This document shows, piece after piece, positions 7,105-26,970 of a stretch of DNA of 64,000 nucleotides. Under the pieces are notes generated by a model. The model was not told where the DNA came from, made no database searches, and worked only from the letters and a program-made list of their open reading frames with translations. Source of the stretch: a virus; IMG/VR virus record IMGVR_UViG_3300030616_000025, positions 1-64,000 of that record; one strand, 5' to 3'. Positions within the stretch are counted from its first letter, which is position 1. Every line of letters begins with the position of its first letter. The translations under genes and the position numbers were made by a program.

Positions 7105-8906
7105 ACAAAATAGAAATCGAAAAACACATAGACGAAATGCTACAGGCGATAGCAGATACACGCATGATGCTATTCAGAGATCATCACATAAATACATCCG
7201 GCGATAGAATGTCGTTTGATAGTATGCCGTACATGAAGCAGATATACGAAGAAATATCAAGGCGAATCAGGCTAATGGGCGCGGCGCAGAACGGAAAAAC
7301 AGACTGGGCGACAATAGACTGTCTTTCAATGCTTGGACTTGGGCTAAACACATTCCACGTTTTCAGTGATGCAGTAAGTAAGCAAAAGTATTTTAATACA
7401 CGAGTTAATTTTCTGTGCGACCGAGTACCGCTGTACGCAGAAATGGAAGTCAACGGGAAATATCGCCGGAACATGAATGCCCGCAGAATGGGCGCGTCAA
7501 ACTGGCTGTATGCAATCAGCGGTTCAAAGACAACGTTCAGCTCTGACCCTGCGGATGTGGTTGTCGTAGACGAATACGATGAATGCAACAAAGAAAATAC
7601 AATGATGGCGTGGGACAGAATACAGAACAGCCCGTATAAATTTGACAGACTACTTGCTAACCCGACCGTGGCAAATCAGGGCATAGCGTTACAAATGGAA
7701 GAAAGCAAATACTATGTCTATCACTGGGAATGTGATGAATGCGGGGAAATGATACCGCCTGACTTTTTCAAGGTTGTATGCCACGACGTAATAGACAAAG
7801 AAGGAAATCATTTAGGCTATGAGCTGTACGATACAGAATGGCACGACGGGATAGACAGAGATATATATATCAGGTGTCCGCACTGCAATCACTTGCAGAC
7901 AAGGGAAAAATGGGACGAGAATACATACCGGGGGAAATGGATAGCGAAATACCCGGAGAAAGAAATAGCCGGATACTGGATACCGCTGATACTCAAACTT
8001 GACACACAGATAAGCGAACTCTGGCATGACCTGAAAATATCAGAACACGATATAGTCCAGATGCAGTGGTTTTATAATAAACGACTCGGACTGCCATATG
8101 AAGGACACGGCGCGAAAATTACAAGCGACATGATACACCGGAGTATGGGAGAGTACAATACTCTACAGAGTTACACAGAAGAGCATGGAGCGGTGGCGGG
8201 GGTAGACGTAGGCGCGTACTATGACATGCAGATAGACGTTCATGTTCAGACAGAGGAAAAGGAAAGAAAGAAAATGACACTCTGGGCGGGGAGATGCGAA
8301 AGCCTGGATGATGTTGAAAGCCGGATAAAGCAATACAACGTAAAGCTTGCCGTGTTCGATTCACAGCCGGAATATAACGCTGTAAGAGAATTTCAATCAG
8401 ACATGTACGGTAAATGTCGAGTAGCATTATGCCAGATAATGAAAGCACGGACGGGGAAATTAAAAATAATGGGCGTTGATTGGGACAGGGACAACGACAT
8501 AGTCAAGGTAGATCGTGACTGGCTGTTGACGGAATCACAGCGCATGTGGCAGAACAATATCTGTATTGTGCCGAAGGATTACAAAAGTCTGGCAAACGGA
8601 TTCTGGGAAGATAGTCTTGTCAGCATAACGAAATACAAGGACGAAAAAGAAGACATATACACATGGAGCAAGGCTGAAGGCAAAGACCACTTCAGGTTTT
8701 CAGATGCTTTTGCTATGCTTGCGTGGATGGAGAAAAAGGAAATAATAATAATCGGCGATTTAGACTTTGTAAGGGCAAAGCTTGAATCAGAAGGACACAG
8801 CGAGGAAGATATTGAAAGAGGCGTACAGCGGGTAGCGGACGAAGGATACAAAGAGGAAGATGTATTGCAGTATAGATTTGGCTTTAGAAATCGGAGGAAG
8901 AGATGA
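7080..8906 (+). CDS. terL: large terminase subunit (lambda GpA-like)
   Basis: Walker A MGAAQNGKT, Walker B VVVVDEYDE, internal zinc-ribbon CDECG...CPHCNH. Size and position fit. The exact start is uncertain (TTG 7080, TTG 7102 or a later ATG). Confidence 0.85.
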   Translation: MRDKGNCLNKIEIEKHIDEMLQAIADTRMMLFRDHHINTSGDRMSFDSMPYMKQIYEEISRRIRLMGAAQNGKTDWATIDCLSMLGLGLNTFHVFSDAVSKQKYFNTRVNFLCDRVPLYAEMEVNGKYRRNMNARRMGASNWLYAISGSKTTFSSDPADVVVVDEYDECNKENTMMAWDRIQNSPYKFDRLLANPTVANQGIALQMEESKYYVYHWECDECGEMIPPDFFKVVCHDVIDKEGNHLGYELYDTEWHDGIDRDIYIRCPHCNHLQTREKWDENTYRGKWIAKYPEKEIAGYWIPLILKLDTQISELWHDLKISEHDIVQMQWFYNKRLGLPYEGHGAKITSDMIHRSMGEYNTLQSYTEEHGAVAGVDVGAYYDMQIDVHVQTEEKERKKMTLWAGRCESLDDVESRIKQYNVKLAVFDSQPEYNAVREFQSDMYGKCRVALCQIMKARTGKLKIMGVDWDRDNDIVKVDRDWLLTESQRMWQNNICIVPKDYKSLANGFWEDSLVSITKYKDEKEDIYTWSKAEGKDHFRFSDAFAMLAWMEKKEIIIIGDLDFVRAKLESEGHSEEDIERGVQRVADEGYKEEDVLQYRFGFRNRRKR

Positions 8907-9493
8907 AAGGAACAGTAATCCTTAACTACGGTTGTCCGAGAAGCGGGACTACTTTTATATGGTTTCTACTTCGGGCGGGAACGGGATACACATACGGTAA
9001 GATAGGCGAAAACGATCCTTGTCATCCTTGCAACAGTGGGACAGGTCTATTGCATATCAAGAAAACGTTTCGAGATTATAACGTTGTTTTTATTCGCACG
9101 GTGAGAAATCCCATACAGATATTCGAATCATTCAGACATGCGCACAAAACTAACGACGGCGAAATAGGAAAAAAAGCAGACATAGAAATCAAGCGATACA
9201 TACAAAACGAAGAGCGCAACACAAAAGAACAGGCGGGGAAAGTAAGAATATTAACAGTCAAATTTGACATGCTTTCAAACGATTCTTACGTGGAAAAAGT
9301 AATGACAACATTTAAGAAACACTTTCCGAACGCAGAGCATAATACAAATATTTTGCGGAAATATATACACAAGAATTTTAATCACTTCCCCGTCAGGCCC
9401 GGCAAGTTGCAAAGCGGGGTAAAAGACCGACAGTATCTTAGCGAGACAGAAAGACAGGAAATAATGCAGTGGTATAAGGAAAGCGTAAAATGA
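8903..9493 (+). CDS. sulfotransferase-family protein
   Basis: N-terminal PAPS-binding-type loop NYGCPRSGTTFIWFLL, plus VVFIRTVRNP (3'-phosphate-binding-like RxxRNP). Confidence 0.65.
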   Translation: MKGTVILNYGCPRSGTTFIWFLLRAGTGYTYGKIGENDPCHPCNSGTGLLHIKKTFRDYNVVFIRTVRNPIQIFESFRHAHKTNDGEIGKKADIEIKRYIQNEERNTKEQAGKVRILTVKFDMLSNDSYVEKVMTTFKKHFPNAEHNTNILRKYIHKNFNHFPVRPGKLQSGVKDRQYLSETERQEIMQWYKESVK

Positions 9494-10623
9494 ACATACT
9501 ATGTATCGTAATAGACTGCGGGCGGTTTGACTCTTGGGGCTGTAACGGGTTCAACAGGAATACTCCGAACATAGACAATCTTGCGGAGAAAAGCATACTG
9601 TACACGAACGCATATACTACAGCACCGTATACCCCGGCGGCGATAGCATCACTGTTCACAGGTAAATATCCATACGAGCACGGGATAAGGACAATGTATG
9701 GCAGTTGTCTTGATTCAGATGTTAAGACAGTACCGGAGATACTTCAGGGGCAGGGGTGGAATACGGCAGGGTTTGTCGGCTATGCAGGGCTATTGAGTTA
9801 CTACGGTCTGGACAGGGGCTTTAACTTTTTCGACGAAGATTCGGATTTAAGCAAAAACTGGGGAAAGACAAAAGCAGGGTGGAAAGGTAACGACTGGCGC
9901 AAGATGTATACAAGCTATTGCAAAAATCTAAAGAAAGATAACAATTTTATATTCGCACATTACTTTTTTGCTCACACAGGCGGGGAGAAAGCACTGCCGG
10001 AAGAATACAAAAAAGCAGACACATCAAGACACAAATATTTTCAGTACTACGACAAAAAAATAGAATGGTTTGATAAGGAATGGCTACCGCTGATACTTGA
10101 GCCGTGGGACTTGGATAATACAGCGGTGATAATGCTTGCGGATCACGGGGAATGTTTCGATGTCAAAAAAGAGCCGGGAGGACACCGAACAAATCTATTT
10201 CAGGATACAGTTCACATACCGCTGATGATACACGATATTGTAATCGAGGGTGGCGGTATAGACAGCAAATTGAAAAGCAATATAGATATATTCAGCAATA
10301 TTACCGAATGCAGTCATACAGCAGATACGATTTACTTCGAAACAACAAACGAAGACAAACCAGATCAACCGACATTCCGGGCGGGACTGACGGACGGAAA
10401 GAAAAAAGTAACCGCCGAGGGAGAAAATATAGGAGAGATTATAAACATAGAAGGGTGCTACGAAGTCGACGAGGAAAAGGAAAAAGAAATAGACTTAGAC
10501 CAGGATTGCGGAAAGCTGTTTCAAGAACTCATGGCAAACGAGGAAATGAAGCGAGAAATGAACGTCAAATGGGACGCGCAGGAAGCGCATATCGAAACCT
10601 TAAAGCAGTTGGGGTATATGTAA
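9490..10623 (+). CDS. sulfatase / alkaline-phosphatase-superfamily protein (possibly a phosphotransferase)
   Basis: ILCIVIDCGRFD metal site, YTTAPYTPAAIASLFTGKYPYEHG, MLADHGE. The C/S-x-P-x-R formylglycine motif is absent. Confidence 0.75.
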   Translation: MNILCIVIDCGRFDSWGCNGFNRNTPNIDNLAEKSILYTNAYTTAPYTPAAIASLFTGKYPYEHGIRTMYGSCLDSDVKTVPEILQGQGWNTAGFVGYAGLLSYYGLDRGFNFFDEDSDLSKNWGKTKAGWKGNDWRKMYTSYCKNLKKDNNFIFAHYFFAHTGGEKALPEEYKKADTSRHKYFQYYDKKIEWFDKEWLPLILEPWDLDNTAVIMLADHGECFDVKKEPGGHRTNLFQDTVHIPLMIHDIVIEGGGIDSKLKSNIDIFSNITECSHTADTIYFETTNEDKPDQPTFRAGLTDGKKKVTAEGENIGEIINIEGCYEVDEEKEKEIDLDQDCGKLFQELMANEEMKREMNVKWDAQEAHIETLKQLGYM

Positions 10624-11705
10624 TGCAAGTAAAATTTATAGACCTTGAAAAACTACACGAACCGATAATGCCGGAAATAGCACAGGCGATAGATAGCGTT
10701 GTCAGCGATAACGCTTTTATCGGCGGGAAATATGTAGAAGAATTTGAACAGGCATTCGGGAAATACCACGAAAGTAAATGTATAAGCTGTAACAGCGGGA
10801 CAGACGCGTTGATACTGGCATTGAAGGCGTTGGGAATAGACGAAGACAGCCGTGTTATTGTGCCAGATAATACATTTATAGCGACGGCAAACGCGGTAAG
10901 TGCATTAGGCGGTGTTCCTATATTCGCGGAAACAAACGACGAATATCTGATAACCGCGGAAGGAATAAAAGAAGCATATTATTCAGAGGTAGATGCAATC
11001 ATAGTAGTACACCTGTACGGAAATCCCTGTGACATGGATAGCATAATAGATGTTGCGAATGAATACAATCTGCCGATAATAGAGGACTGCGCGCAGGCTC
11101 ACGGTGCGACATACAAAGGAAAGAAAGTAGGAACATTCGGGGCGTGTGGATGTTTCAGTTTCTATCCGACAAAAAATCTTGGCGCAATGGGAGACGGCGG
11201 GGCTGTAATCACGGGAAACGCACAGCATGAAAGATTTATGAGAATCCTCAAAAATAACGGGCGCATGGATAAATATGAATATCTGGCAGAAGGAATCAAC
11301 AGCAGACTTGACGGTATACAAGCGGCTGTACTGACGGAGAAGTTAAAGCACCTTGACGAATTGAATTATCTGCGCAGGAAAAATGCGGGAATATACTACG
11401 ATGAACTAAAAGATATTGATGAGATAAAAATAATCACGCAGTACCGAGAAGAAAAAATGTGCGTGTATCATCAGTACGTCATAGAAGCAGGATCAAGAAA
11501 TGATTTGCAGTCATATTTGGCTTTATTCGGAATAGAGACAGGAATATACTATCCGTGTGCATTGACCGGAACAAAACCGTATTACAAGCAGGAATTAAAC
11601 GAAGCAGAAAATTTTAACATACTTAGCTTACCTATGCATCCGATGTTGACGGAAGAAGAAATAATATACGTCTGTGATAAGATAAAGGAATTTTACGATG
11701 TGTGA
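10623..11705 (+). CDS. DegT/DnrJ/EryC1/StrS-family PLP-dependent sugar aminotransferase
   Basis: FIGGKYVEEFEQAF, CNSGTDALILALKALGI, IIEDCAQAHGA, FSFYPTKNLGAMGDGG (lysine motif). The start is the ATG overlapping the upstream TAA, not the track's 10152. Confidence 0.9.
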   Translation: MQVKFIDLEKLHEPIMPEIAQAIDSVVSDNAFIGGKYVEEFEQAFGKYHESKCISCNSGTDALILALKALGIDEDSRVIVPDNTFIATANAVSALGGVPIFAETNDEYLITAEGIKEAYYSEVDAIIVVHLYGNPCDMDSIIDVANEYNLPIIEDCAQAHGATYKGKKVGTFGACGCFSFYPTKNLGAMGDGGAVITGNAQHERFMRILKNNGRMDKYEYLAEGINSRLDGIQAAVLTEKLKHLDELNYLRRKNAGIYYDELKDIDEIKIITQYREEKMCVYHQYVIEAGSRNDLQSYLALFGIETGIYYPCALTGTKPYYKQELNEAENFNILSLPMHPMLTEEEIIYVCDKIKEFYDV

Positions 11706-11961
11706 ATACTGCGACTGGTTTAAGCACCCGGAAACAAAACCGCTTATAATTCATGATGAAACAGCCGATTATCTTATAGTTGAATGTCCGATAGAAAGAA
11801 AACCGTTAGTTGTTTTCAAGCGGCACAAGGAAGATATAAAGTATATGGATATGATTGAAGCTATCGCAAGAGTGGGAACGCTGTTCGGGCCGACGTGCAA
11901 AATAAGAACGACCGACAATATTCATGCATGTTTTTATGTGGAGGATGCGCAGAATGTATGA
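11698..11961 (+). CDS. hypothetical protein
   Basis: ORF overlapping the upstream stop. No clear motif. Confidence 0.4.
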   Translation: MCEYCDWFKHPETKPLIIHDETADYLIVECPIERKPLVVFKRHKEDIKYMDMIEAIARVGTLFGPTCKIRTTDNIHACFYVEDAQNV

Positions 11962-12310
11962 GTATTTTATAGACTCTATACCGCCTTCATTAAATGCTTA
12001 TCTTGGAAAATCCGGGAAGTGGTATAAATATCAAGCAGATAAAAAGAAATGGGATTTATTGATGTTTGTTTCAATATCAGTCAATAGACCAGAAAAGCCA
12101 CTACCAAAAGCAAGAGTTATTTTAAGTTATCATTTCCCAGACAACAGAAGGCGTGATGCAGATAATTATTCTGGCAAACTCATATTAGACCCATTAGTTA
12201 AATATGGAGTCTTGCAGGATGATAGTTTTAAAAATGTGAAGTTGGAACTTATGGCAGAATTCAAAAGCGAAACTCCCGGATTAAACATCTTTATAGAGGA
12301 ATTGCTATAA
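11954..12310 (+). CDS. rusA: RusA-family Holliday junction resolvase
   Basis: PPSLNAY...RRRDADNYSGKLILDPLVKYGVLQDDS. GGAGG lies 9 nt upstream of this ATG. Confidence 0.8.
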   Translation: MYEYFIDSIPPSLNAYLGKSGKWYKYQADKKKWDLLMFVSISVNRPEKPLPKARVILSYHFPDNRRRDADNYSGKLILDPLVKYGVLQDDSFKNVKLELMAEFKSETPGLNIFIEELL

Positions 12311-12312
12311 CA

Positions 12313-12504
12313 ATGCCGACATATAGTTTTCAATGTCCGAAGTGCAAATATACAAAAGAGGAATTTCTGCCGATGAATTACAGTACCTTAATAAAGTGTC
12401 CGAAATGCGGGAAGAAAATGCAACAGCAAATAGATTGCGGGGCGGGAGTGATATTTAAAGGCAAGGGTTTTTATGAGACAGATTATCGGAGGAAGAAAAA
12501 ATGA
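12313..12504 (+). CDS. FmdB-family zinc-ribbon protein
   Basis: MPTYSFQCPKC...CPKCG...KGKGFYETDY is the typical CxxC_CxxC_SSSS layout. Confidence 0.7.
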   Translation: MPTYSFQCPKCKYTKEEFLPMNYSTLIKCPKCGKKMQQQIDCGAGVIFKGKGFYETDYRRKKK

Positions 12505-12989
12505 GTGTAGTATGTTGCAAGATAAAAAAAGACAAGATCGAAATAGCCGCCGATACGATAGAGGTTTATGATTGGACTCAAAAAAAAAGCAGTTCAAAGC
12601 TGATAAAAACAAATAATATGATTATTGGCATGGTAGGCGATTGTATGGAGGCAAGCCGTTTCATGCATTATTGCACAACAAATAAACCACGACTGGCGGA
12701 TACATATTCTATTATGCTTTTTTTGTCCGAATTTTCGGAATGGATGATGAACAAGTTTAAGGTTTCTGATATTGAGAATGATTATATGTTGATATTTGAC
12801 AAGAAAGCATTTAGAATGCTTGGTGGACATGTCGACGAAATAACAGATTATTATGCAATAGGTGCGGGAATGGATTATGCATTATCGGCATTATATCTTG
12901 GACATGGTGTAAAAAAGGCAGTCAAAACAGCGTGTGAATTATCTATATATTGTGAAGAGCCTATAGAATATTATTATATAAGGAAATAA
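12501..12989 (+). CDS. hypothetical protein, possibly an HslV/proteasome-beta-like Ntn-hydrolase fold
   Basis: The order of blocks resembles HslV: SVVCCKIKKDKIEIAADT, IIGMVGDCMEA, YYAIGAGMDYALSALYLG, then IYCEEPIEYYYI. Eye alignment only. Confidence 0.35.
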   Translation: MSVVCCKIKKDKIEIAADTIEVYDWTQKKSSSKLIKTNNMIIGMVGDCMEASRFMHYCTTNKPRLADTYSIMLFLSEFSEWMMNKFKVSDIENDYMLIFDKKAFRMLGGHVDEITDYYAIGAGMDYALSALYLGHGVKKAVKTACELSIYCEEPIEYYYIRK

Positions 12990-12991
12990 AA

Positions 12992-13315
12992 ATGGCAATA
13001 ATTAACAGAGATTTATGGGTAGACGAGAGATACACTTCTATAGCAGACATGTTTCAGCCGTGCTTAGACCAGATACAAAAGGGCAAGGGCATGGAGCGGC
13101 ACGGGACGGATCAGAAGTTCAAGGATCAGGTGACATGGCAGATAATAAAAAGCTGTCCTGGTTTTGCGCTTGGACAGATGCTGAAAAAGGGGCTTGAAAT
13201 ATCGAGGCTGTCAAACACGGACGCAAAAATAAGAGAACTCAAAGGAGCTATTAACTACGGCATGTTTGAATTGATGCGGCTACTTGAAGTAAAAGAGAAT
13301 GAAGACAAAGAATGA
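12992..13315 (+). CDS. hypothetical protein
   Basis: ORF in the packed array. Confidence 0.5.
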   Translation: MAIINRDLWVDERYTSIADMFQPCLDQIQKGKGMERHGTDQKFKDQVTWQIIKSCPGFALGQMLKKGLEISRLSNTDAKIRELKGAINYGMFELMRLLEVKENEDKE

Positions 13316-13646
13316 AATTCCTCTGGGCGGAAAAAACGTAAAGATAGGAGAAAAATTCAGATGTCCACAATGCGGAACAATAGCAGTCAAGCAACAGCAC
13401 AATCAGCAGTTTTGCGTAAAGCAACGCAGAAGTGACAATAGTTCAGTATGCAAGAATTTATATCATGGAAAAAGATACGATCACAAGAGACAAAAGCAGG
13501 ACAAAAGAATATTGTATAAAAGAAAAAAAATGAAAGAGATATATTATAACTCAAAGCGAGAACATAAATGCCCGAAATGCGGGGTAGACATTATAGAAGG
13601 TTCTTATTGCGAACTATGTAAGGAGAAAATGAATGTTAATAGCTGA
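13299..13646 (+). CDS. basic double zinc-ribbon protein
   Basis: CPQCG...C...C and CPKCG...CELC, with a Lys/Arg-rich middle. Confidence 0.5.
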   Translation: MKTKNEIPLGGKNVKIGEKFRCPQCGTIAVKQQHNQQFCVKQRRSDNSSVCKNLYHGKRYDHKRQKQDKRILYKRKKMKEIYYNSKREHKCPKCGVDIIEGSYCELCKEKMNVNS

Positions 13647-14505
13647 TTATTCAAAAACATTACCGAATGATTTTAGGTTGTATTGGATGGCTGATTTGCA
13701 TATTGGTATGGCGGGTGTCAAGGAAAAACTCATTAAAGATTTATTTGCAAGAATAAAACGAGATGATAACGCCCGAATAGCATTAGGTGGTGATCTAATT
13801 GAAGCCGCCCCTGTGGGACATCCGTATTTTGATATAGATGTTCATGGTGGGGATTATGCGGTAACAAGCAAACAGGTAGATAGGGTTTGCGAATTGCTTG
13901 ATGGATTGCAGGACAAAATATTGTTTAATCTTGTCGGAAATCATGAACTTCGAATAAAAAACATTATGGATGTTGGTGCGGCAATAAATCAAAGACTTGG
14001 GATTGATGTTCCGTGCGGCAATGTCGATATTGTCTGCACATTGACAGAGAAAAAACACGATGATTATCCTGCAATAAAATTTTATGCTCATCATGGAGCG
14101 GGTAGCGTTAATTCGCAAGCGGGTGATTTAGACCAGATATACAGGAATGATGCAAGACGCGTAAAGAGAAAGCTTCGGTTCAAAAGAGCAGATTGTATTT
14201 TAATGGGTATGGCTCATATACACAAGATAAGAATATGCAAACCCGTTAAACAGATGATGATTATTGGCGACAAAGATAAAAGCGTTAAGCAGGAATACCC
14301 CGAAGCCATATTTACTTCTGATGGGGCTATAGAGGAAAATAGCCGTTGGTATTTTTCTACAGGTGCATTTTTTGGGTCACAAGTAGAGGGAATAGATACT
14401 TATGCCAGTAAATACATGTATGATCCGTTACAGCTTGGGTGCGTCAAAATATACGTAGAAGACGCAAAGGTAAAAAATGTCGAGCCGGTAATTATGGGAA
14501 ATTAA
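13633..14505 (+). CDS. calcineurin-like metallophosphoesterase
   Basis: DLHIG, GGDLIE, VGNHE, AHHGAG and MAHIH motifs in the canonical order. Confidence 0.8.
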   Translation: MLIADYSKTLPNDFRLYWMADLHIGMAGVKEKLIKDLFARIKRDDNARIALGGDLIEAAPVGHPYFDIDVHGGDYAVTSKQVDRVCELLDGLQDKILFNLVGNHELRIKNIMDVGAAINQRLGIDVPCGNVDIVCTLTEKKHDDYPAIKFYAHHGAGSVNSQAGDLDQIYRNDARRVKRKLRFKRADCILMGMAHIHKIRICKPVKQMMIIGDKDKSVKQEYPEAIFTSDGAIEENSRWYFSTGAFFGSQVEGIDTYASKYMYDPLQLGCVKIYVEDAKVKNVEPVIMGN

Positions 14506-14531
14506 CGGTAAACTTTTTTAAAGGAAAAAGG

Positions 14532-19226: not shown

Positions 19227-19765
19227 AGGGATTTCAGTTGAACCACACAACCGCTAAAGACACCAGAATAAAAATAGGCGATGCGCTTCGAAAAATATAT
19301 TGGTTCTATTGTGACTATTGTTGTCAGCGGATATTTACCCGCCCATCTCATTACAAGAGAAAGAAGCGGCACTATTGCTCTATGGAATGCTATTCAAAAG
19401 ACAGAAGGGAAAACTGGAAGCCAGAAGATCAACCAACATGGACTGGCGGTGTAAGCAACACAGAAACGCATAGACGATGGAAAAAGAAAAATCCAGAACG
19501 AATGGCGCATTTAAAAGCGAGAAGATATGCGAGAAAGAAGAATGCCGAAGGATTTCATACGTTTGAGGAGTGGCAAGAATTATTAAAGAAATACGGTTGG
19601 AAATGCGCTCATTGTGGCGCAGAAAATGATATAACAAAAGATCATATAATTCCGTTATCGGAAAACGGAACAGACTATATCGATAATATTCAACCGTTGT
19701 GCAGAAGTTGTAATAGCAAGAAGTGGAAACACATCTACGAAAACCCAGAACTATTGAAAGGATAA
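19211..19765 (+). CDS. HNH endonuclease
   Basis: CAHCG...DITKDHIIPLSENGTDYIDNIQPLCRSCNSKK. Confidence 0.85.
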   Translation: MPKGVKGFQLNHTTAKDTRIKIGDALRKIYWFYCDYCCQRIFTRPSHYKRKKRHYCSMECYSKDRRENWKPEDQPTWTGGVSNTETHRRWKKKNPERMAHLKARRYARKKNAEGFHTFEEWQELLKKYGWKCAHCGAENDITKDHIIPLSENGTDYIDNIQPLCRSCNSKKWKHIYENPELLKG

Positions 19766-19768
19766 ACC

Positions 19769-20020
19769 ATGCCGTATGTCAAGCAAATAAATAGAGATTC
19801 ATTGGATTACATTGTACAGGCAATGAGATTGGCAGAGATAAAAGCCGACGGCGATTTAAACTATATTCTATTCGCCTATTGCAAAAGACATATCAAGCCG
19901 GGATATAATAACTATAAGAATTTTTGCAGTGAATTAAGACAATGCGCAACAGAGATAGAAAGACGGCTATTAGCGCCATACGAAGACCAGAAAATTGTAG
20001 AAAATGGAGATGTGATATGA
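19769..20020 (+). CDS. hypothetical protein
   Basis: ORF in the packed array. Confidence 0.5.
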   Translation: MPYVKQINRDSLDYIVQAMRLAEIKADGDLNYILFAYCKRHIKPGYNNYKNFCSELRQCATEIERRLLAPYEDQKIVENGDVI

Positions 20021-20601
20021 GGTTCCCAGACTTCGAAGCGTGGAAAGAATACATACATCCCATAGACAGGAACAAGAACCTACAGCAGAGATATGAATAC
20101 TATCGAAATAAATACGACATGTTAAGTGAAATTGAATGTAGCAAGATGTGTGAAATCGGAGTCAGATACGGATACAGTGCGATAAGCTTTTTGACGGCAC
20201 ACCCGATCGCTGAATATATGGGTATTGATTGGATAAGTGGCGAGCATGGCGGGGTACAGGAAGATACATTCAGATACGTTTATCCTATGCTTGCGAAAGA
20301 ATTTCCAGAGGCTGTCATAAGTCTTGTACATGCGAATACGCAGGAAATGGTTTCACTACCGACAAATGAATTTGATTTTATTCACATAGACGGCGATCAT
20401 ACATATGAGGGTGCGGGGTGGGATATGAGAATAGCGTGGGAATCATTAAAGCATGGCGGCATGATGCTGATAGATGATTACAAGGCATTAAAAGAAATAC
20501 AACACGCAGTAAATGACTTTATCATAAGTCGTGGCGATCAGATAAAACAATATAATTTAGTAGACACATTCAGGGGAGATTTTAGGATATGGAAAACATG
20601 A
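20017..20601 (+). CDS. class I SAM-dependent methyltransferase (Methyltransf_24/CmcI-like)
   Basis: CEIGVRYGYSAISFL and FIHIDGDHTYEGAGWD...LKHGGMMLIDDY. ATGA overlap. Confidence 0.7.
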   Translation: MRFPDFEAWKEYIHPIDRNKNLQQRYEYYRNKYDMLSEIECSKMCEIGVRYGYSAISFLTAHPIAEYMGIDWISGEHGGVQEDTFRYVYPMLAKEFPEAVISLVHANTQEMVSLPTNEFDFIHIDGDHTYEGAGWDMRIAWESLKHGGMMLIDDYKALKEIQHAVNDFIISRGDQIKQYNLVDTFRGDFRIWKT

Positions 20602-21485
20602 ATAATATGCTTTATTACGATTGGAATAATCTCATAGTGTTAGATGCTTGCCGGTTTGATATATTCGAACAGGTCAATGATATTCCGGGGGAATTAAAAA
20701 TGATACGGTCTGTCGGGTGTCAAACAATAGAATGGGTAAGGGGAACATTCGGCAAGAGGAAGCATGATGACACAGTTTACTATTCATCAAATCCGTTTAT
20801 CAGCGAATCAGAACTTGGCAAGCTCTTGCCGGGACTGAAATTTCACAGGATATACAACGTATGGAAAAGCGGATATGACAAAGCAATTAAGAATGTGCCG
20901 CCCAGAAATGTCAACAAAATAGTATATGAAACGTATGAAATGCACAAAGAGAAAAGAAAAGTAATTCATTACAACAATCCGCATATACCGTTTTTGACGG
21001 GGGATGAAAAAGTACTCGGGAAAAACTATAGCGAAATGAAGAAGGATTTGGAAGCCGGATTGATAACAGCGTCGGACATAAGACTTGCGTATATCGAAAC
21101 GACCAGAGAAGTGTTAAGCGCGGTCAAGGAATTGCTTGCGGTATTGAAGGGCAAGACAATCATTACCGCGGATCACGGAGATATGCTTGGGGAGAAGGGA
21201 TTGTGGGGACATGGTACACGGCATAGAGGCATACTTGAACAAGTGCCGCTATTGGTAGTCAAGCCAGACGAAGAATTGATAATCGAACAGCTTGATAGTC
21301 TTGGATATATGGACAAACCGCAGACTTATATATACGCTTGGGGTAACAATGAAAAGCGCAAGTCAATGAAGGGTAGAGAGTGCGAGGTGTTAGCGCGGGG
21401 AAAGAAAAATACATGCACAGTGAAATTTCTTGACAACGGGCAAGTGGAATCTATCAGCAGAAACGCTTTAAGGAAGGTAAAATGA
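20598..21485 (+). CDS. alkaline-phosphatase/sulfatase-superfamily protein with a small C-terminal beta domain
   Basis: LIVLDACRFD metal site and ITADHGDMLGEKGLWGHG. No sulfatase nucleophile motif is recognisable. Confidence 0.55.
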   Translation: MNNMLYYDWNNLIVLDACRFDIFEQVNDIPGELKMIRSVGCQTIEWVRGTFGKRKHDDTVYYSSNPFISESELGKLLPGLKFHRIYNVWKSGYDKAIKNVPPRNVNKIVYETYEMHKEKRKVIHYNNPHIPFLTGDEKVLGKNYSEMKKDLEAGLITASDIRLAYIETTREVLSAVKELLAVLKGKTIITADHGDMLGEKGLWGHGTRHRGILEQVPLLVVKPDEELIIEQLDSLGYMDKPQTYIYAWGNNEKRKSMKGRECEVLARGKKNTCTVKFLDNGQVESISRNALRKVK

Positions 21486-22168
21486 TACTAACAAAATACG
21501 TAATTGGAAGTGGGTTCTTTTGCACAGAAGACGGGAACGTTAAGCATGGAGGTACAGCACGGTTTGGGACAGACACATTTGTACATACGCCAGAGTTTTT
21601 CAATCTATGGTTTGAATATATCAGCAAATTTACAACACCAGAATATGTATTTATAACTGACGCACGAAGTCCGGCTGTACCGGGAATACCGAAAAACAAT
21701 AACTTTGACATAATCTGGTATCGCAGGAAAGACAATCTTGGACACGCACGAGGTTGGAACGACGGGGTAATACAGGGTGCTGAATTCGCGCATCAGAAAA
21801 ACTGCGACTATGTCTATGTAGAGCAGGATTGTTTGGTATACGGGAAAGGGTGGGTAGAGAAATGCATGTACGGAATGGACAAGCCAGTACTGTTAGGCGA
21901 AGGCGGGCCGGGCAACTGGCCTATACAGCAGTGCTTAATCGTGGTTAAGAATTACTTTATACCTACGTTTGTAAAGCTGATAGGCGAAACGCTCAAAGAC
22001 GAGGCTGGAAAAGACATAGCACAGGAATACATGTATTCACGCAGGCTTGAAGGACATTATGAATTTATACCGTTTGTGGGCGGCAGACATAGACCGTTAG
22101 CCGATGATTACTGGTATGCACAGCACATCAAGCCGGAAGAATTAAAGAAAATGAAAGAGCTAATATGA
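21482..22168 (+). CDS. hypothetical protein (possible sugar-nucleotide transferase fold)
   Basis: Embedded in the glycan block. YVYVEQDC is a possible acidic motif. No firm family. Confidence 0.4.
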   Translation: MILTKYVIGSGFFCTEDGNVKHGGTARFGTDTFVHTPEFFNLWFEYISKFTTPEYVFITDARSPAVPGIPKNNNFDIIWYRRKDNLGHARGWNDGVIQGAEFAHQKNCDYVYVEQDCLVYGKGWVEKCMYGMDKPVLLGEGGPGNWPIQQCLIVVKNYFIPTFVKLIGETLKDEAGKDIAQEYMYSRRLEGHYEFIPFVGGRHRPLADDYWYAQHIKPEELKKMKELI

Positions 22169-22713
22169 AATACGATCTCGGAGGCAAGGGAAAAGGCGGT
22201 GAATGGACAACGGTAAATCTCGGCGCAAACGCAGACATACGCGCCAATCTACTTTACCTCGATGAATTTTGCGAAGACGGAGAAGTAGACGAGTTTAGAT
22301 TATTCAGTGTCTACGAACACCTGCCGACAGTATACATACCTAAATTTCACGCGGATATACACAGGAAATTAAAGCCAGACGGAATATTGCACGTGAAATT
22401 GACAGATGCAAAAAAGGCAATACAATTTTACAACGAAGGGAAGCTGTCATTTTACGGGCTGAATGACATACTGTTTGCATGTAAAGCGCGGAGATTAAAA
22501 GAGGCACGGGAAAAGTTAATTGACTTTAACATCCACAGGTGCATGTGGGGGGAAGAAGAAGCAATAAAGGAATTTGAACATTACGGATACAGGGTAAGAG
22601 TTGAGCAACGGAAATCATGGAAGTTTAACCTGCCGAGTTACTTGCCGTTTCATGACAACGAGAAATACTTTGACCTATCAATACCGGAATTTATATTGGA
22701 GTGCAAACATTGA
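22165..22713 (+). CDS. possible SAM methyltransferase-fold protein
   Basis: FSVYEHLP...IHRKLKPDGILHV resembles the C-terminal half of the Methyltransf_11 fold. The glycine-rich N-terminus is atypical. Confidence 0.4.
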   Translation: MKYDLGGKGKGGEWTTVNLGANADIRANLLYLDEFCEDGEVDEFRLFSVYEHLPTVYIPKFHADIHRKLKPDGILHVKLTDAKKAIQFYNEGKLSFYGLNDILFACKARRLKEAREKLIDFNIHRCMWGEEEAIKEFEHYGYRVRVEQRKSWKFNLPSYLPFHDNEKYFDLSIPEFILECKH

Positions 22714-23723
22714 AAACAATCTATCACTATCACATTTATAATTCAAACAGAGGTGACCAGGCTATACACCAATCAATACACGATATGATAGAGAGGGTGC
22801 ACGGAGAAAAAATAAACTGGATTCCCAAATGTCTCAATAATGATGTATGCACAAAAGAAGTCATAAAGGAAATGAACGAACAGGGCGACATGCTTATAAT
22901 AGGGGGGAGCGGATTATACGTTAATGCATGGAAAAACTATGAGGGTGCGTATTGGTATTTTCCGTGCGATCAGAAACTATTCAAGGAGATAAAAATACCT
23001 ATAGTACTGTGGAGCTTGGGAATGAACAAGGATTTTTCGGGGGAAGAAGAGCCGTTGACTGAGCAGACGTGGGATAGTATAGCGGAAATGAATGAACTGT
23101 GTGCAATGAGCAGTGTTAGAGACGAACGAACATTTGACAATCTATTGTGGCACGGAATAAAAACAAAACTCATAGCAGACCCGGCGCTATTTTTACAACC
23201 GGACACGAAGATTGAAAACGCCGAATTGCAGAGGTTAATTATAGACAATGATACGCTTGGGCTTAATCTGGCAAGTCACACAGAGTGTGCAAGAGCAATC
23301 CGGGATAAGAGCATAGATAAAATAATTGACATGTGTCATGCGTGGACAGGAAGCATAGTATACTTAAAACATCACGAAATGGAACACCGAAGTATAAAGC
23401 TATTGAAGAAAAAGGGTTTAAATCCATATGTTGTAGATTGCGAGCCGAAGCAGTTGTTGTATGTTATGCAACATCTGAGCCGGGCAATAAACATGATGCT
23501 TCATAACTGCATATTGTGTGTCAACGCAGAACTTCCGGTGTATAATATTCCATATAATGTAAAGCACGAGGGGTTTTTTAACTTGTTTTCGGATTCAATG
23601 AAATGCACAGGGTCGGACGCGTATATGATAAAGTGCTATGACGATCAGATATTGCGCCGGAAAAGAAAACTGAAACAGGACAATGACGATTGGTGCAGAA
23701 GGGTAGCTGAATTACTGAATTAA
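22701..23723 (+). CDS. polysaccharide pyruvyl transferase-like protein
   Basis: YHIYNSNRGDQAI...GDMLIIGGSGLY is the PS_pyruv_trans N-terminal signature. GTG or TTG start. Confidence 0.6.
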   Translation: MQTLKTIYHYHIYNSNRGDQAIHQSIHDMIERVHGEKINWIPKCLNNDVCTKEVIKEMNEQGDMLIIGGSGLYVNAWKNYEGAYWYFPCDQKLFKEIKIPIVLWSLGMNKDFSGEEEPLTEQTWDSIAEMNELCAMSSVRDERTFDNLLWHGIKTKLIADPALFLQPDTKIENAELQRLIIDNDTLGLNLASHTECARAIRDKSIDKIIDMCHAWTGSIVYLKHHEMEHRSIKLLKKKGLNPYVVDCEPKQLLYVMQHLSRAINMMLHNCILCVNAELPVYNIPYNVKHEGFFNLFSDSMKCTGSDAYMIKCYDDQILRRKRKLKQDNDDWCRRVAELLN

Positions 23724-23758
23724 ATATAATTATCTAATTGTTAGAAGGAGGTAAAATT

Positions 23759-24421
23759 ATGGAAAAACATGAGATAGAAAACGTTGTGTATCCGGGTTAT
23801 GATACTGGAAATATTGATGGATGGTTAAAGAAGTCTGAGGGAGAAACATTATATGCTATTTCAAAACTGACAGCAGGCCCGATACTTGAAATAGGTTCTT
23901 GGCACGGGTTGTCAACGTCATATATAGGGCGCGGGGTAAGAGACAGCCGTGATAATTATCCAGATAAAAGATTTGTTGCAACAGAGATGAATCCGACAAA
24001 AGATAATTTCCGGCAGATAGATGATAAGCATTGTGGCTTTTTCGATCCACCAGATGCAGACAAGCCTATAGTTGTTTCCGCACTTTGTGCATTAGACAAG
24101 ATACTTCCGACTATTGGAAAATGCATGGAAATTCTAAAAAAAAACATGAACGATATTGAAATGACTGATTATGTAGAAATACTTGAGGGTAGATTTGAAG
24201 ATGTTGCACCCAAATTGCAGTATTCATTTATTTTTTGCGACATTACTCACAGCAAGAAAGGAATAGACATGCGTATACCTGTTATAAAAACTATGCTTGC
24301 AGAGGAAGGGGTATTGGCGTGTCATGATGTACCGAGCCGAAATCTTGTTGATTATTTGCATAGATACATACATCCAAAAACCTATTTTTGTGTTGACAAT
24401 TTATATGTTGGATTGTTTTAA
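23759..24421 (+). CDS. class I SAM-dependent methyltransferase (Methyltransf_24-like)
   Basis: GAAGGAGG lies 7 nt before the ATG. PILEIGSWHGLSTSYIGRG and FIFCDITHS. Confidence 0.65.
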   Translation: MEKHEIENVVYPGYDTGNIDGWLKKSEGETLYAISKLTAGPILEIGSWHGLSTSYIGRGVRDSRDNYPDKRFVATEMNPTKDNFRQIDDKHCGFFDPPDADKPIVVSALCALDKILPTIGKCMEILKKNMNDIEMTDYVEILEGRFEDVAPKLQYSFIFCDITHSKKGIDMRIPVIKTMLAEEGVLACHDVPSRNLVDYLHRYIHPKTYFCVDNLYVGLF

Positions 24422-24529
24422 ATGGATTTATTGAATTTAATAAAAAAGCGTAGGATGAATGGATACGCAAAAGATGAATTAAAACACAAAAACGACATAT
24501 GGGTTGAGAAAGTAGCGAGTCTATTATGA
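24422..24529 (+). CDS. small hypothetical protein (35 aa)
   Basis: Fills the gap exactly. TAAATG start and ATGA overlap with the MurB-like gene. Confidence 0.3.
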   Translation: MDLLNLIKKRRMNGYAKDELKHKNDIWVEKVASLL

Positions 24530-25356
24530 AAAAATATTACAATTATTCAGTAAAGCATCTAACGACATTCAATATCGGCGGGGAAATGGAAGAGGTAGTA
24601 TTCCCGCAGACAGTCATTGAAGTAATGGAAGCATTAGAGACAGACAAGCGTATATATATACTCGGCGGTGGGAGTAATGTATTATTCGCCGACGGAAAGA
24701 TAGAAGGTAGGCTGATATGTCTTAAAAAGCTCTGTAGTCGCATCTGGGACGGCGTAGAGCTAACGGCAGACGCAGGATGTACAAACATGCTACTTTCAAA
24801 AGAAGCGGCGTTACAGGGGCTGTCAGGGCTTGAATGGGGCGTCTGTGTGCCTGGAACTATAGGTGGGGCGGCATACATGAACGCAAGCTATCAGCAGGGT
24901 ATAAGGCACTGTGCTACGCACGTATGGTACTACGATAGGCACGAGCAAGGAAACGCAGTTATAGAGTGGAAAGCTGCGGGGAAAGGACACAGAAAAACCA
25001 TATTTCAGGACATTGACTGCGTAATTCTTAGCGTGAAAATGCGATTAAAGAAGGACACCGTTCAAAATATCAGCAATAGAATGAGCAAACAGTTGGCGCG
25101 GAAAGAAAAAACACAGCCGATATATACCAATAGCGCAGGGTGTATATTCAAAAATCCGTCCTTCATGCTTAAAGTCAAATTGCCGACAAAGAAGATAGGC
25201 GGGGCGGAAATAAGCGAGGTAGACCCGCGATATATAATTAACGCAGGGGGAGCAACAGCAAAGGACGTACTGGAGCTGATACGGATAATCGAGGACGCGG
25301 AGGGAGAGAAAAAAGAACTTGAAATAAAACTTATAGGATTTGACGAAAAAAAATAA
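24526..25356 (+). CDS. murB: MurB-like UDP-N-acetylenolpyruvoylglucosamine reductase
   Basis: HLTTFNIGGE, ILGGGSNVLFAD, GLSGLEWGVCVPGTIGGAAYMNA, SAGCIFKNP. Confidence 0.8.
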   Translation: MKKYYNYSVKHLTTFNIGGEMEEVVFPQTVIEVMEALETDKRIYILGGGSNVLFADGKIEGRLICLKKLCSRIWDGVELTADAGCTNMLLSKEAALQGLSGLEWGVCVPGTIGGAAYMNASYQQGIRHCATHVWYYDRHEQGNAVIEWKAAGKGHRKTIFQDIDCVILSVKMRLKKDTVQNISNRMSKQLARKEKTQPIYTNSAGCIFKNPSFMLKVKLPTKKIGGAEISEVDPRYIINAGGATAKDVLELIRIIEDAEGEKKELEIKLIGFDEKK

Positions 25357-25363
25357 AAACTTC

Positions 25364-25391
25364 TTGACATATCATGAAAAAGACATATAAT
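25364..25391 (+). promoter_or_regulatory. sigma70-type promoter P2 (TTGACA-N16-TATAAT)
   Basis: -35 at 25364-25369 and -10 at 25386-25391. Confidence 0.6.
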
Positions 25392-25414
25392 ATAGGTATT
25401 TAAAGGATAGAGCA

Positions 25415-25862: not shown

Positions 25863-26089
25863 AAAACATGTACGAGGTCGAAGTAAAAAGCGGAAATAAA
25901 TACTTCGTAATAGCAAACGACTTTAACGACGCGGAAAGAGTATTATCAAAATATATAGAGCGATGGGGATTGTTAAAGCATTATACGAGAGGCGCAAAAA
26001 GAATAACGCTCATATCACCGGTGGCGGAAATAAACGACGCGAAAGCAGATAAGACACAGGCAAGAGTCCTGTATGAAGAAAATCTATGA
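25859..26089 (+). CDS. hypothetical protein
   Basis: ATGA overlap. Confidence 0.5.
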   Translation: MKNMYEVEVKSGNKYFVIANDFNDAERVLSKYIERWGLLKHYTRGAKRITLISPVAEINDAKADKTQARVLYEENL

Positions 26090-26970
26090 AGACGGCTTAT
26101 ATCTATAATATCCCGGATTGGGCGGTGCATAACGTAGGCAAGCTATGGTTTGGACACAGAGACGATGTCGACTTGCTTAACTGGCACAACACGAGCGGGG
26201 AAGAATTAAAAAAATACGACCACATCATATTTGGACTATACACAATCTATGAGGACTTCAAATACAACAAACACAACTGCACTGTTGTTATACATGACCC
26301 TTGTGAGGTATTCGATCAAAACGTGGGATGGAAACAATCTCACAAGGTAACGTCTGCGGCAAACAAAATAAAGCATATTAGAAATTTAATCGTTATCAGC
26401 GAGGAAATGGAATACAGGATACACAAAGAGATAGGGCGAATGACATATCGCATACCGACAATGACACTGGACGAGCCGGGGGAAGTAAAAGATAGAGAGA
26501 CATGCAAGGTAATATCGATATTCAACAGATACCCGCGGAAAAGACCGGACTTTATAGTCAAACTACAAAAGCAACTGAAAAACGCGGGAATAGAAATGTA
26601 CATAAAGACAACGAAAGATAACATGCTAAGCAGGGAAGAATACATACAGAAATTAGACAGCCATGATATATACGTATGTGCGTCATTTCAGGAAGGTGGC
26701 CCTTTGCCCGCTTTAGACGCTATGAACAGAGGTTTAATGGTTATTTCGACGCCGGTAGGACAAATGCGGGAAATGATAAAAACAGGTCATAACGGTATAC
26801 TGTGCAATCACTTATCTATAAAGCAGTGGATAGAGCACTTAAACGAAAACCGGGGAGAGATAAAAAGAATGCAAAAAGCCTCCCTTGAAACAATACGTAA
26901 ACAGCGTAATATACAGGATATACGCAAAACAGTAGATGACTATTTAGAAAGGAAAAGCCATGAAGAGTAA
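26086..26970 (+). CDS. GT-B glycosyltransferase (GT1/GT4-like)
   Basis: YVCASFQEGGPLPALDAMNRGLMVISTPVGQMREMIKTGHNGIL. Confidence 0.75.
   Translation: MKTAYIYNIPDWAVHNVGKLWFGHRDDVDLLNWHNTSGEELKKYDHIIFGLYTIYEDFKYNKHNCTVVIHDPCEVFDQNVGWKQSHKVTSAANKIKHIRNLIVISEEMEYRIHKEIGRMTYRIPTMTLDEPGEVKDRETCKVISIFNRYPRKRPDFIVKLQKQLKNAGIEMYIKTTKDNMLSREEYIQKLDSHDIYVCASFQEGGPLPALDAMNRGLMVISTPVGQMREMIKTGHNGILCNHLSIKQWIEHLNENRGEIKRMQKASLETIRKQRNIQDIRKTVDDYLERKSHEE

Follow-up and report, generated by a model that had tools for sequence, protein, structure and literature searches.

A candidate glycan gene module next to packaging and head genes in an uncultured tailed phage

The stretch of DNA analysed here (64,000 nucleotides, positions 1 to 64,000 of IMG/VR record IMGVR_UViG_3300030616_000025; hereafter the window) represents most of the 69-kb genome of an uncultured tailed phage. 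Between its large terminase and portal genes, and upstream of the terminase gene, lie genes for putative soluble enzymes that build or decorate sugar chains, to which about one fifth of the genome is given. Comparison with metagenomic relatives indicates that the core of this set is a phage-specific, lineage-conserved module whose position relative to the terminase gene varies. We propose, with moderate confidence, that it specifies a cytoplasmic, phage-specific glycan pathway most likely decorating structural proteins of the virion.

A module conserved around the terminase gene

The interval between terminase and portal is delimited and, at its right-hand end, filled by the following genes.

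7080-8906, + strand: large terminase, the left boundary (GpA_ATPase, 5e-16); its 39-53% identical homologues define the phage lineage
29813-31465, + strand: portal, the right boundary (weak Phage_portal_2 match; 38-51% identity to the portals of relatives)
26960-29703, + strand: about ten small open reading frames (ORFs) filling the rest of the gap, none with a Pfam match

From terminase to portal the distance is 20,906 bp, in agreement with the 21 kb or so given by the initial annotation. According to the gene map, the interval holds 39 genes, all on the + strand like every long ORF of the window; 96.8% of it is coding and 31 of its 40 gene junctions overlap or abut. Downstream of the portal gene follow a MuF-like head-morphogenesis gene, an 878-aa capsid fusion, and tail tube (42965-43885), tape measure and distal tail genes. 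A strong hairpin terminator (36022-36050; 11 pairs, 8 of them G-C) is located directly 3' of the capsid gene, and no convincing + strand candidate was found between the terminase gene and this hairpin. Together with the dense gene overlaps, this weakly suggests read-through of the block with the head genes.

Of the 30 genes within 8903-26970, 13 are of carbohydrate type or belong to the conserved module; they account for ~11.3 of 18.1 kb. The earlier description of some 18 kb as dense in carbohydrate motifs holds for this share; the block as a whole is a mosaic that also contains RusA, HNH, YopX and phosphoesterase genes. Profile searches do place ORFs of the block in carbohydrate-active families. 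The initial DegT, hexapeptide acetyltransferase, pyruvyl transferase, MurB-like and GT4 (GT, glycosyltransferase) assignments correspond to Pfam matches above threshold, and of the upstream genes at 996-5554 the GT4-GT2 fusion was likewise matched, the GT9-like gene weakly; the initial sulfotransferase and GT8-like assignments are weak and remain below their cut-offs. The genes concerned are listed below.

996-3503, + strand: GT4-GT2 fusion, 835 aa, module member upstream of the terminase gene (Glyco_trans_1_4, 1.8e-10; Glycos_transf_2, 1.6e-13)
4622-5554, + strand: stand-alone GT9-like protein, 310 aa (weak, sub-threshold Glyco_transf_9 match), with a C-terminal four-Cys cluster
8903-9493, + strand: sulfotransferase 1, tentatively of the 3'-phosphoadenosine 5'-phosphosulfate (PAPS) type (Sulfotransfer_3, 25.7 bits against a cut-off of 27)
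9490-10623, + strand: alkaline-phosphatase (AP) superfamily enzyme of 'sulfatase' fold (PF00884, 1.2e-28, 100.8 bits against a cut-off of 25; Phosphodiest, 7e-6)
10569-11705, + strand: DegT-family sugar aminotransferase (PF01041, 3e-98, 329.8 bits against a cut-off of 19.8)
14905-15597, + strand: GT8-like glycosyltransferase, weak (Glyco_transf_8, E 0.0027, 17.8 bits against a cut-off of 24.3), with a DSD (DxD-type) motif
15765-16322, + strand: left-handed beta-helix N-acetyltransferase of the 3-amino-sugar class (Hexapep, 1.2e-25, 88.5 bits)
17056-18702, + strand: GT2-GT9 two-domain signature enzyme, 548 aa, with an N-terminal GT-A (GT2-like) domain and a C-terminal GT9-like domain bearing a four-Cys cluster
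20017-20601 (start 19942/20017), + strand: Methyltransf_24 (TylF-like) methyltransferase a (PF13578, 2.1e-15; TylF, 5.9e-5)
20589-21485, + strand: second AP-fold protein, weak (Sulfatase, 15.7 bits against 25), with an ADHGD motif
21482-22168, + strand: conserved module protein, 228 aa, without Pfam, PHROG or NCBIfam match
22165-22713, + strand: 182-aa protein without family match, and without orthologue in the relatives searched
22701-23723, + strand: polysaccharide pyruvyl transferase of the CsaB/WcaK family (PF04230, 1.5e-13, 51.8 bits against 25.3)
23738-24421, + strand: Methyltransf_24 methyltransferase b (PF13578, 4.2e-14)
24526-25356, + strand: MurB-like FAD-dependent enolpyruvyl reductase (FAD_binding_4 and MurB_C, both above cut-offs)
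26086-26970, + strand: GT4 glycosyltransferase, 294 aa (Glycos_transf_1, 6.4e-12)
61345-61896, + strand: sulfotransferase 2, outside 8903-26970 and part of the conserved set (Sulfotransfer_3, 29.5 bits against 27; Sulfotransfer_1, 26.6 against 22)

Among cultured phages no close relative was found, terminase identity being ~20%, and single-protein scans of IMG/VR and a search for prophage relatives in GTDB genomes returned none either. Alignment-based searches did recover metagenomic relatives with 39-53% identical terminases, in which the interval from terminase to portal is as follows.

Window: 20.9 kb
L004/L005/L006 lineage, L031/L082, L036/L078 and L077: 300-430 bp, then the same head genes
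UViG_3300033148_004581 (L073-L075, L083): ~3.5 kb
L002: >10 kb
L076 (IMGVR_UViG_3300009034_000632), the closest by portal (51%): >6 kb

The separation is thus unusual, as had been supposed: in six relatives, with terminases ~40% identical, the portal lies 300-430 bp downstream of the terminase. Tight spacing appears to be the common state and the expansion in the window therefore derived.

The relative UViG_3300033148_004581, whose terminase and portal are 39% and 38% identical to those of the window, holds orthologues of 12 window genes at 26-51% identity. These include the AP-fold enzyme 9490-10623 (37%, full length, as in L002), the GT2-GT9 enzyme (26%), the 228-aa protein (41%, encoded directly after the GT2-GT9 gene), YopX (27%), GT4 (39%), the pyruvyl transferase (45%), an N6/N4 DNA methylase segment (49% over 88 aa), Methyltransf_24 methyltransferase a (44%), the MurB-like protein (46%; L073 12343-13191) and sulfotransferase 2 (51%). 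The N-terminal half of the GT4-GT2 fusion corresponds to separate GT4 genes in L002 and L073 (36-37% identity; 37% in UViG_3300033148_004581), followed by a separate GT2 gene. In UViG_3300033148_004581 the module lies immediately upstream of the terminase gene and the sulfotransferase gene directly upstream of the portal gene, inside the terminase-portal gap. In L002, genes for GT4, the AP-fold enzyme and the GT2-GT9 enzyme (27%, full length) are also found upstream of the terminase gene. In the window, parts of the module lie on both sides of the terminase gene and sulfotransferase 2 is far off. The conserved core diverges about as much as terminase and portal do in related phages.

Around this core the gene content varies. 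DegT, sulfotransferase 1, the GT8-like gene and the second AP-fold gene occur in the window only, with no orthologue in the relatives searched; UViG_3300033148_004581 has a PIG-L deacetylase and an ATP-grasp enzyme of its own. Several further candidates failed as orthologues of window genes: the 298-aa and 140-aa ORFs of L076, a 313-aa ORF of L002 (for 4622-5554) and a 345-aa ORF of L036 (for DegT), which is a DNA methylase instead.

The GT2-GT9 enzyme is a rare marker of this neighbourhood. A search of 1.84 billion representatives yielded 42 homologues at E <= 1e-3, about a dozen of them full length; the enzyme is carried by 1 of 2.9 million IMG/VR contigs, and a word-indexed search with the protein returned only itself. 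Its gene lies next to the terminase gene in the window, L002 and L075. Family members also occur in three SU10-type contigs (L087, L088, L091), beside a cluster of terminase-sized gene, portal and capsid, from which the glycan module is transcribed divergently; these modules contain GT2, rhamnosyltransferase-like, NDP-sugar epimerase/dehydratase, Methyltransf_24, Methyltransf_11 and hexapeptide acetyltransferase genes. The short contig L085 shows the same glycan neighbourhood around its family member. Every member with enough context thus lies on a phage contig, adjoining packaging or head genes, and none was seen in a bacterial chromosomal context.

Host chromosome joined by misassembly, raised as a concern at the outset, was rejected because composition matches, two assemblies agree and much of the block recurs, conserved, in further phage contigs. 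In strand-specific tetranucleotide usage, three parts of the block correlate with other non-structural parts of the genome at r = 0.90-0.94. GC content and skews are even along the window; the coding strand is purine-rich (~0.60) with strong positive GC and AT skews throughout, and the block genes share this purine-rich strand. ENA contig ERZ27252234 k141_3008316 (69,038 bp) and the JGI copy (69,024 bp) are the same sequence; the ENA contig begins near window position 61,132, which makes the two assemblies circularly permuted versions of one genome. No flanking direct repeats were found at the block boundaries. The initial view of the block as a wedged-in insertion is not borne out: a single clean insertion was rejected, given the lack of boundary repeats and the location of the module on the other side of the terminase in two relatives. 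Synteny and divergence indicate instead that the block was not recently acquired from a host, and that the wedge is a module rearranged around the terminase gene plus accumulated morons, in a variable accessory site next to that gene.

Predicted chemistry of the glycan

Seven glycosyltransferase domains, five robust and two weak, are distributed over the GT4-GT2 fusion, the GT2-GT9 enzyme, the second GT9-like protein, GT4 and the GT8-like protein. For the GT2-GT9 enzyme, profile and fold searches agree with the initial call. A family profile compared with the Protein Data Bank (PDB) matched WaaF (1psw, 1.4e-6), SpsA (0.002) and TibC (0.19); PDB sequence searches with the GT9-like domains gave nothing useful. 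An AlphaFold2 (AF2) model was obtained with a predicted local distance difference test score (pLDDT) of 80 and a predicted template modelling score (pTM) of 0.82. In Foldseek, its C-terminal half matched WaaC, WaaF, TibC and 3tov (a Veillonella GT9) with target TM-scores of 0.45-0.58, TibC ranking no better than WaaC or WaaF; its N-terminal half matched GT-A enzymes, including TarP (PDB 6h2n/6h21). As modelled, the C-terminal domain is of GT-B fold and GT9 type. The stand-alone protein 4622-5554 is a paralogue of this half (E 6e-9) and is 29% identical to the same half of the 570-aa protein of L073.

Both GT9-like domains end in a four-Cys cluster (CxPC...C...WxC; 18550-18620 and 5440-5520), which is kept across the rare GT2-GT9 family. 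BAHT/TibC protein O-heptosyltransferases have a four-Cys iron site, assemble as dodecamers and use a protein acceptor; the cluster may be a metal site resembling the iron site of TibC.

Two enzymes point to an amino sugar. The best PDB matches of the DegT-family protein are 7b0d (3e-83) and 7n63 (2e-82), both annotated as aminotransferases, followed by QdtB (3e-72), DesV (6e-68), WlaRG and WbpE (9e-60). Among solved structures it is, by sequence, closest to sugar C-3 aminotransferases; it remains below every NCBIfam equivalog cut-off, so that no substrate was assigned. The hexapeptide acetyltransferase matches WlbB (3mqg, 3.5e-50), FdtD (4mzu, 2.7e-44) and QdtC (3fs8, 1.4e-19). Aminotransferase and acetyltransferase form a coherent pair, which together would yield a 3-acetamido sugar. 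DegT-type genes occur in 88 deposited phage records. The best annotated match among these, 'Aphanizomenon phage Yong-DA' (GenBank ON073792.1, L072), carries ParA, ParB, replication protein and polysaccharide export genes and looks plasmid-like, which makes it a doubtful phage comparator.

Two Methyltransf_24 enzymes stand for the three or four S-adenosylmethionine (SAM)-dependent methyltransferases initially counted, one of which proved to be a DNA N6/N4 methylase. The pyruvyl transferase matches positions 1-278 of the 280 of the PF04230 profile and scores 47.8 bits against the CsaB equivalog, not reaching the cut-off of 213; it has no PDB sequence match and no homologue in 50,697 deposited phage records. 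The MurB-like gene is always found close to that of the pyruvyl transferase. All 13 PDB matches of the MurB-like protein are MurB (best 4pyt, 5e-36), yet it stays below NCBIfam equivalog cut-offs (NF010480, 185.7 against 259; another model, 122.5 against 144.5). Housekeeping MurB uses the Ser of its AGS-xF-xNP motif as catalytic general acid; the AGS of this motif in 4pyt is replaced by AGC both in the window and in the L073 orthologue. The phage protein thus shares family and fold with housekeeping MurB but has Cys for the motif Ser and is partnered with a pyruvyl transferase rather than with MurA. The pair may convert an enolpyruvyl or pyruvyl substituent derived from phosphoenolpyruvate (PEP) into a lactyl ether. 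MurB-like matches in deposited phage records are mostly unannotated gut fragments.

The initial annotation had counted two sulfatase/AP-fold proteins. The fold assignment stands, weakly so for the second; the reading of 9490-10623 as a formylglycine (type I) sulfatase was rejected, as the C/S-x-P/A-x-R motif is absent. This protein shares fold and sequence family with formylglycine sulfatases (PF00884, 1e-28) and keeps the metal-binding Asp and the Asp-His pair (D9, D218 and H219, conserved in an alignment of homologues). However, its motif reads T-P-A-A-I in alignments to 6hr5, 7oz8 and 4upi, Thr replacing the catalytic Cys or Ser and Ile the Arg, so that the P-x-R part is missing. Across the subfamily the Thr is nearly invariant (consensus T-x-P-S-H). 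A Thr nucleophile in the alkaline-phosphatase fold is typical of phosphoryl-transfer enzymes such as LtaS, EptA and NPP, which favours a phospho-substituent transferase or a phosphodiesterase over a sulfatase. No homologue of the enzyme was found in the 50,697 deposited phage records. The second AP-fold protein scores 3.5e-6 with a choline-sulfatase model and 8.6e-5 with the STM4013 family, both far under the cut-offs. No orthologue was found in the relatives; a 296-aa protein of L073 was tried and failed.

Sulfation, also part of the initial proposal, remains a plausible component of the glycan, in view of sulfotransferase 2, which scores above thresholds, and of a putative sulfate-activation gene in a relative. 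The two sulfotransferase candidates contain loop-like segments (CPRSGTTF and ERSGTS) and R-x7/8-S segments, the latter represented by RNPIQIFES in sulfotransferase 1, which also carries CPRSGTTF; neither has a useful PDB sequence match. In L076, a gene just upstream of the portal gene (2279-3565) encodes a 428-aa fusion of a CysN-like GTPase and a CysD-like PAPS_reduct domain that scores best as CysN plus CysD, i.e. ATP sulfurylase; an HNH gene adjoins it. Our literature search returned no report of phage-directed glycan sulfation, nor any on a phage sulfotransferase and a virion glycan.

Candidate targets of the glycan

Virion proteins are favoured as the target because the module is associated with head genes in unrelated phages, the machinery appears soluble, lysogeny genes were not found and precedents exist. 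During infection, the enzymes would draw on host nucleotide sugars, PEP, SAM and PAPS, and L076 may top up activated sulfate by itself. Five to seven glycosyl-transfer steps would build an acidic hetero-oligosaccharide or polysaccharide, decorated with 3-acetamido sugars and O-methyl groups, with pyruvyl or lactyl substituents and with esters of sulfate and/or phosphate. Assembly would take place in the cytoplasm on a soluble acceptor, virion structural proteins would be glycosylated before or during assembly, and the variable tailoring genes would diversify the exposed coat. In the choice between virion and host envelope, the comparative context leans towards the virion. A wider proposal is more tentative: that environmental tailed phages of at least two unrelated morphogenetic types share a phage-specific 'capsid glycocalyx' module marked by the GT2-GT9 enzyme, and that in the present lineage it produces a sulfated, pyruvylated/lactylated, methylated amino-sugar virion glycan. 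Glycan sulfation directed by a phage would then be described for the first time, and some relatives would have their own sulfate-activation enzyme. This is possible rather than probable.

Several observations weigh against decoration of the virion or against one pathway. No candidate acceptor stands out: no Ser/Thr-rich tail of the mycobacteriophage type was found on the head and tail proteins, the maximum being 10-12 Ser/Thr per 30 residues. The Ala/Thr-rich protein at 36076-37335 (419 aa), initially named as a candidate acceptor, contains 18% Ser+Thr, has no Pfam or PHROG match and is an enlarged version of the ~115-aa post-capsid ORF of relatives (38% over 118 aa; L076 12328-12672), with no full-length counterpart in a module-bearing relative. 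Neither this window-specific protein nor a group of lectin-fold proteins encoded downstream of it co-occurs with the module, so that both were dropped as module-linked acceptors. The chemistry has gaps as well. No 4,6-dehydratase, 3,4-ketoisomerase or 3-oxidase that would supply the aminotransferase was recognised in the window, for which reason the pathway would rely on host intermediates or unannotated ORFs. Sulfotransferase 1 gave a pLDDT of 34 in single-sequence AF2, and hhalign aligned only its P-loop to the sulfotransferase 2 profile. Position +4 of the AP-fold motif, Ile in 9490-10623, is Arg in sulfatases and His in most subfamily members. The acetyltransferase has a 58% orthologue in L078/L036 adjoining a DUF1937/DUF4406 protein (L036 4642-7200); in L036 this pair has no glycosyltransferase within 10 kb on either side and three DNA methylases nearby, so that not every 'sugar' gene need serve one pathway. 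An N6/N4 DNA methylase and YopX are kept inside the glycan module in both the window and L073 (8670-9020, 10979-11761). Moreover, GT9 enzymes classically act on the lipopolysaccharide (LPS) core, the fold search fails to separate LPS-type (WaaC, WaaF) from protein-type (TibC) heptosyltransferases, and soluble glycosyltransferases can modify envelope polymers before export, which makes the lack of membrane parts compatible with envelope remodelling. Finally, all support comes from sequence.

Some of these points bring forward remodelling of the host envelope, which we treat as a serious, though less probable, alternative. The soluble enzymes would act on lipid-linked or cytoplasmic precursors of the host, which would export the product; LPS core or O-antigen, teichoic acids, secondary cell-wall polymer and capsule are candidate targets, and the change would block superinfection or keep progeny from being lost on debris. 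Thr-type AP-fold enzymes belong to the same fold family as the envelope phosphotransferases of LtaS and EptA type, and the resemblance of the GT9-like domains to the LPS heptosyltransferases WaaC and WaaF, of the N-terminal GT-A domain to the prophage-encoded teichoic-acid glycosyltransferase TarP, and of the pyruvyl transferase to the CsaB/WcaK family, whose substrates are cell-wall polymers and exopolysaccharides, points in the same direction. The large cell-wall synthesis gene sets of cyanomyoviruses have been read in this way (PMC12801897). On the other hand, the window yielded no flippase, polymerase, Gtr-type or acyltransferase-3 membrane protein and no initiating phosphoglycosyl transferase. 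No gene for a polytopic membrane protein is present in the genome, the sugar enzymes contain no transmembrane-like segment, and the membrane domain that LtaS and EptA possess is missing from the AP-fold proteins. Serotype conversion in its classic form benefits lysogens, whereas no sign of lysogeny was found: integrase families are absent from the 64-kb window and from the record for the rest of the genome, and a weak Transposase_20 match was all that came up. The location of the module beside packaging and head genes in two unrelated phage types, moreover, has no obvious envelope reason and is in keeping with a virion target.

Two further readings are prompted by the genes without evident sugar function that interrupt the block.

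11698-14927, + strand: non-sugar interlude, comprising an 87-aa ORF, RusA, a 63-aa ORF, an HslV-like gene, a 107-aa ORF, a Zn ribbon, a metallophosphoesterase and DUF4406
11924, + strand: RusA (1.3e-5)
12501-12989, + strand: HslV-family peptidase-like protein (phrog_1040)
13299, + strand: Zn-ribbon protein
13633-14505, + strand: calcineurin-type metallophosphoesterase (phrog_7339, 'DNA repair exonuclease'; motifs DLH, GGD, GNHE, HHG, HIH)
14439, + strand: DUF4406, nucleoside-deoxyribosyltransferase-like (2.9e-9)
16319-17059, + strand: N6/N4 DNA methyltransferase (N6_N4_Mtase, 2.9e-29)
18687-19226, + strand: YopX (3e-18), with an orthologue inside the L073 module
19211-19765, + strand: HNH endonuclease (1.6e-11)
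19769, + strand: DUF6899 (6e-22), in the non-sugar stretch 18687-20020

The block could be a moron or accessory dump of unrelated small sugar or nucleotide functions, in which the amino-sugar pair, the conserved glycosyltransferase core and the sulfotransferases have different targets and their co-location is over-interpreted. Interruption by RusA, HNH, YopX, DNA methylase, nuclease-like phosphoesterase and many small ORFs fits such a view, as do the shuffled gene order among relatives, the wholly different content of the terminase-portal gap in L002 and L076, the acetyltransferase/DUF4406-type pair of L036 and the window-only extras. It is nevertheless unlikely, given that some ten core genes have remained together in phages with terminases only ~40% identical, that similar enzyme combinations surround the signature glycosyltransferase in unrelated phages, and that the aminotransferase and acetyltransferase fit the same 3-amino-sugar chemistry.

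Alternatively, the enzymes could decorate modified DNA bases against restriction, as in T-even phages. Glycosylation of DNA is the classic role of phage glycosyltransferases, and the glycans reported on DNA are diverse (Pyle et al. 2024, cited in PMC12619734; see also PMC9614988). Within the block, N6/N4 methylase, YopX and DUF4406 would suit this function, the first two being syntenic with the module in a relative. Scans of the window and the records for the remaining 4.9 kb, however, gave no thymidylate-synthase-like dCMP/dUMP hydroxymethylase, 5-hmdU kinase, deazaguanine gene or phage DNA polymerase. To our knowledge, pyruvylation, enolpyruvyl reduction, sulfation and seven glycosyltransferase domains also exceed any known DNA glycan, and we judge DNA hypermodification highly improbable.

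Glycosylation of virion proteins, the preferred reading, has precedents. Virion glycosylation of mycobacteriophages is reportedly the subject of Freeman et al. 2023 (Cell Host Microbe 31:1216). There, as here, tailed phages encode soluble glycosyltransferases and methyltransferases; a glycan made in the cytoplasm reaches capsid and tail proteins there, as it would on the reading preferred here. According to the relevant passage of PMC12619734, the glycans sit on the C-termini of capsid and tail-tube subunits, and a passage of PMC11256854 describes the glycosylation cluster of phage Maravista as one of few genes with two glycosyltransferases. In contrast, the present set comprises ~15 genes, including putative amino-sugar, pyruvyl/MurB-like, AP-fold and sulfotransferase functions, and comes with no Ser/Thr-rich C-terminal acceptor segment. 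A closer parts list is found in the Mimivirus fibril cluster R132-L143, with aminotransferase L136, N-acetyltransferase L142, pyruvyl transferase L143, several glycosyltransferases, some of them multi-domain, and methyltransferase R132 (PMC9614988). That cluster is likewise virus-encoded, acts in the cytoplasm and decorates the particle surface; it varies between clades much as the tailoring genes vary between relatives here. The resemblance is functional, however: the present genome is that of a 69-kb bacteriophage, Mimivirus is a giant virus of eukaryotes, and its set as described lacks a sulfotransferase, a MurB-like reductase and an AP-fold protein.

Other known systems bear on the envelope. 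Cyanomyovirus S-SCSM2R, a lytic phage, also carries many carbohydrate-active genes, its cell-wall set comprising 22 genes including 13 glycosyltransferases (PMC12801897). Unlike the present phage, S-SCSM2R-type phages have far larger genomes with the LPS-precursor and export genes KdsA, KdsB and PgaA, read as serving host-surface or DNA modification; the report has no GT2-GT9 enzyme, pyruvyl transferase/MurB-like pair or sulfotransferases. Gtr/Oac serotype-converting phages and prophage TarP, a soluble GT-A enzyme among our fold matches, also use phage enzymes to alter a surface glycan. They are temperate, however, and rely on one to three genes, usually for membrane proteins; the present set is about five-fold larger and no integrase or membrane component was found.

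Phage sugar clusters are therefore not categorically new. New are the share of a 69-kb genome that the set takes up, the conservation of the module, and the rare GT2-GT9 marker with its recurrence beside head genes in different phage types, together with the combination of a pyruvyl transferase and a Cys-variant MurB, the Thr-type AP-fold enzyme and the sulfation theme. Virus-encoded particle glycosylation is established for giant viruses and a few mycobacteriophages and is hardly explored in environmental phages. The locus offers an unusually rich, conserved enzyme set, with the GT2-GT9 fusion as a marker for such modules in metagenomes, and the repeated association with head genes makes virion glycosylation directly testable. 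A glycan on the particle would affect receptor binding, adsorption to particles or mucus, immune or antibody recognition, and how fast it decays in soils and sediments. With the sulfotransferases and the CysN-CysD-like gene of L076, phage 'sulfur auxiliary genes' would no longer be limited to assimilation but would include glycan sulfation. Finally, new carbohydrate chemistry may be sought in the Thr-type AP-fold protein, in the Cys-variant MurB with its pyruvyl transferase and in the four-Cys GT9-like domain.

Further features of the genome

Some observations outside the sugar genes complete the picture. The capsid protein (33335-35971) is an 878-aa fusion in which the HK97-type capsid domain is confined to residues 577-867; a long capsid fusion (815-987 aa) is common to all relatives. 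Shortly before the terminase gene comes one for a GroES (Cpn10) co-chaperonin (6596-6904), and a tRNA-Met (CAT) gene is located at 5666-5740.

A perfect sigma-70 consensus (TTGACA-16-TATAAT) is present at 25364-25391, in the 58-bp gap after the MurB-like gene, and ribosome-binding sites of the GGAGG type are frequent. Both suggest an ordinary bacterial host, not one of the Bacteroidota type.

Between the head and tail genes lie five tandem ORFs of ~205-235 aa (37945-41263), three of which match a ConA-like lectin fold (Laminin_G_3) and over which the AT skew falls to ~0.01-0.05. These ORFs are absent from every relative examined, which marks the region as a second insertion hot spot.

The genome contains three HNH-type nuclease genes, one inside the block (19211-19765) and two at 59628-60347 and 63220-63822, and a LAGLIDADG-like gene lies beside the module in a relative (L073 113-1456). 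Such selfish elements may drive the rearrangements seen around the terminase gene.

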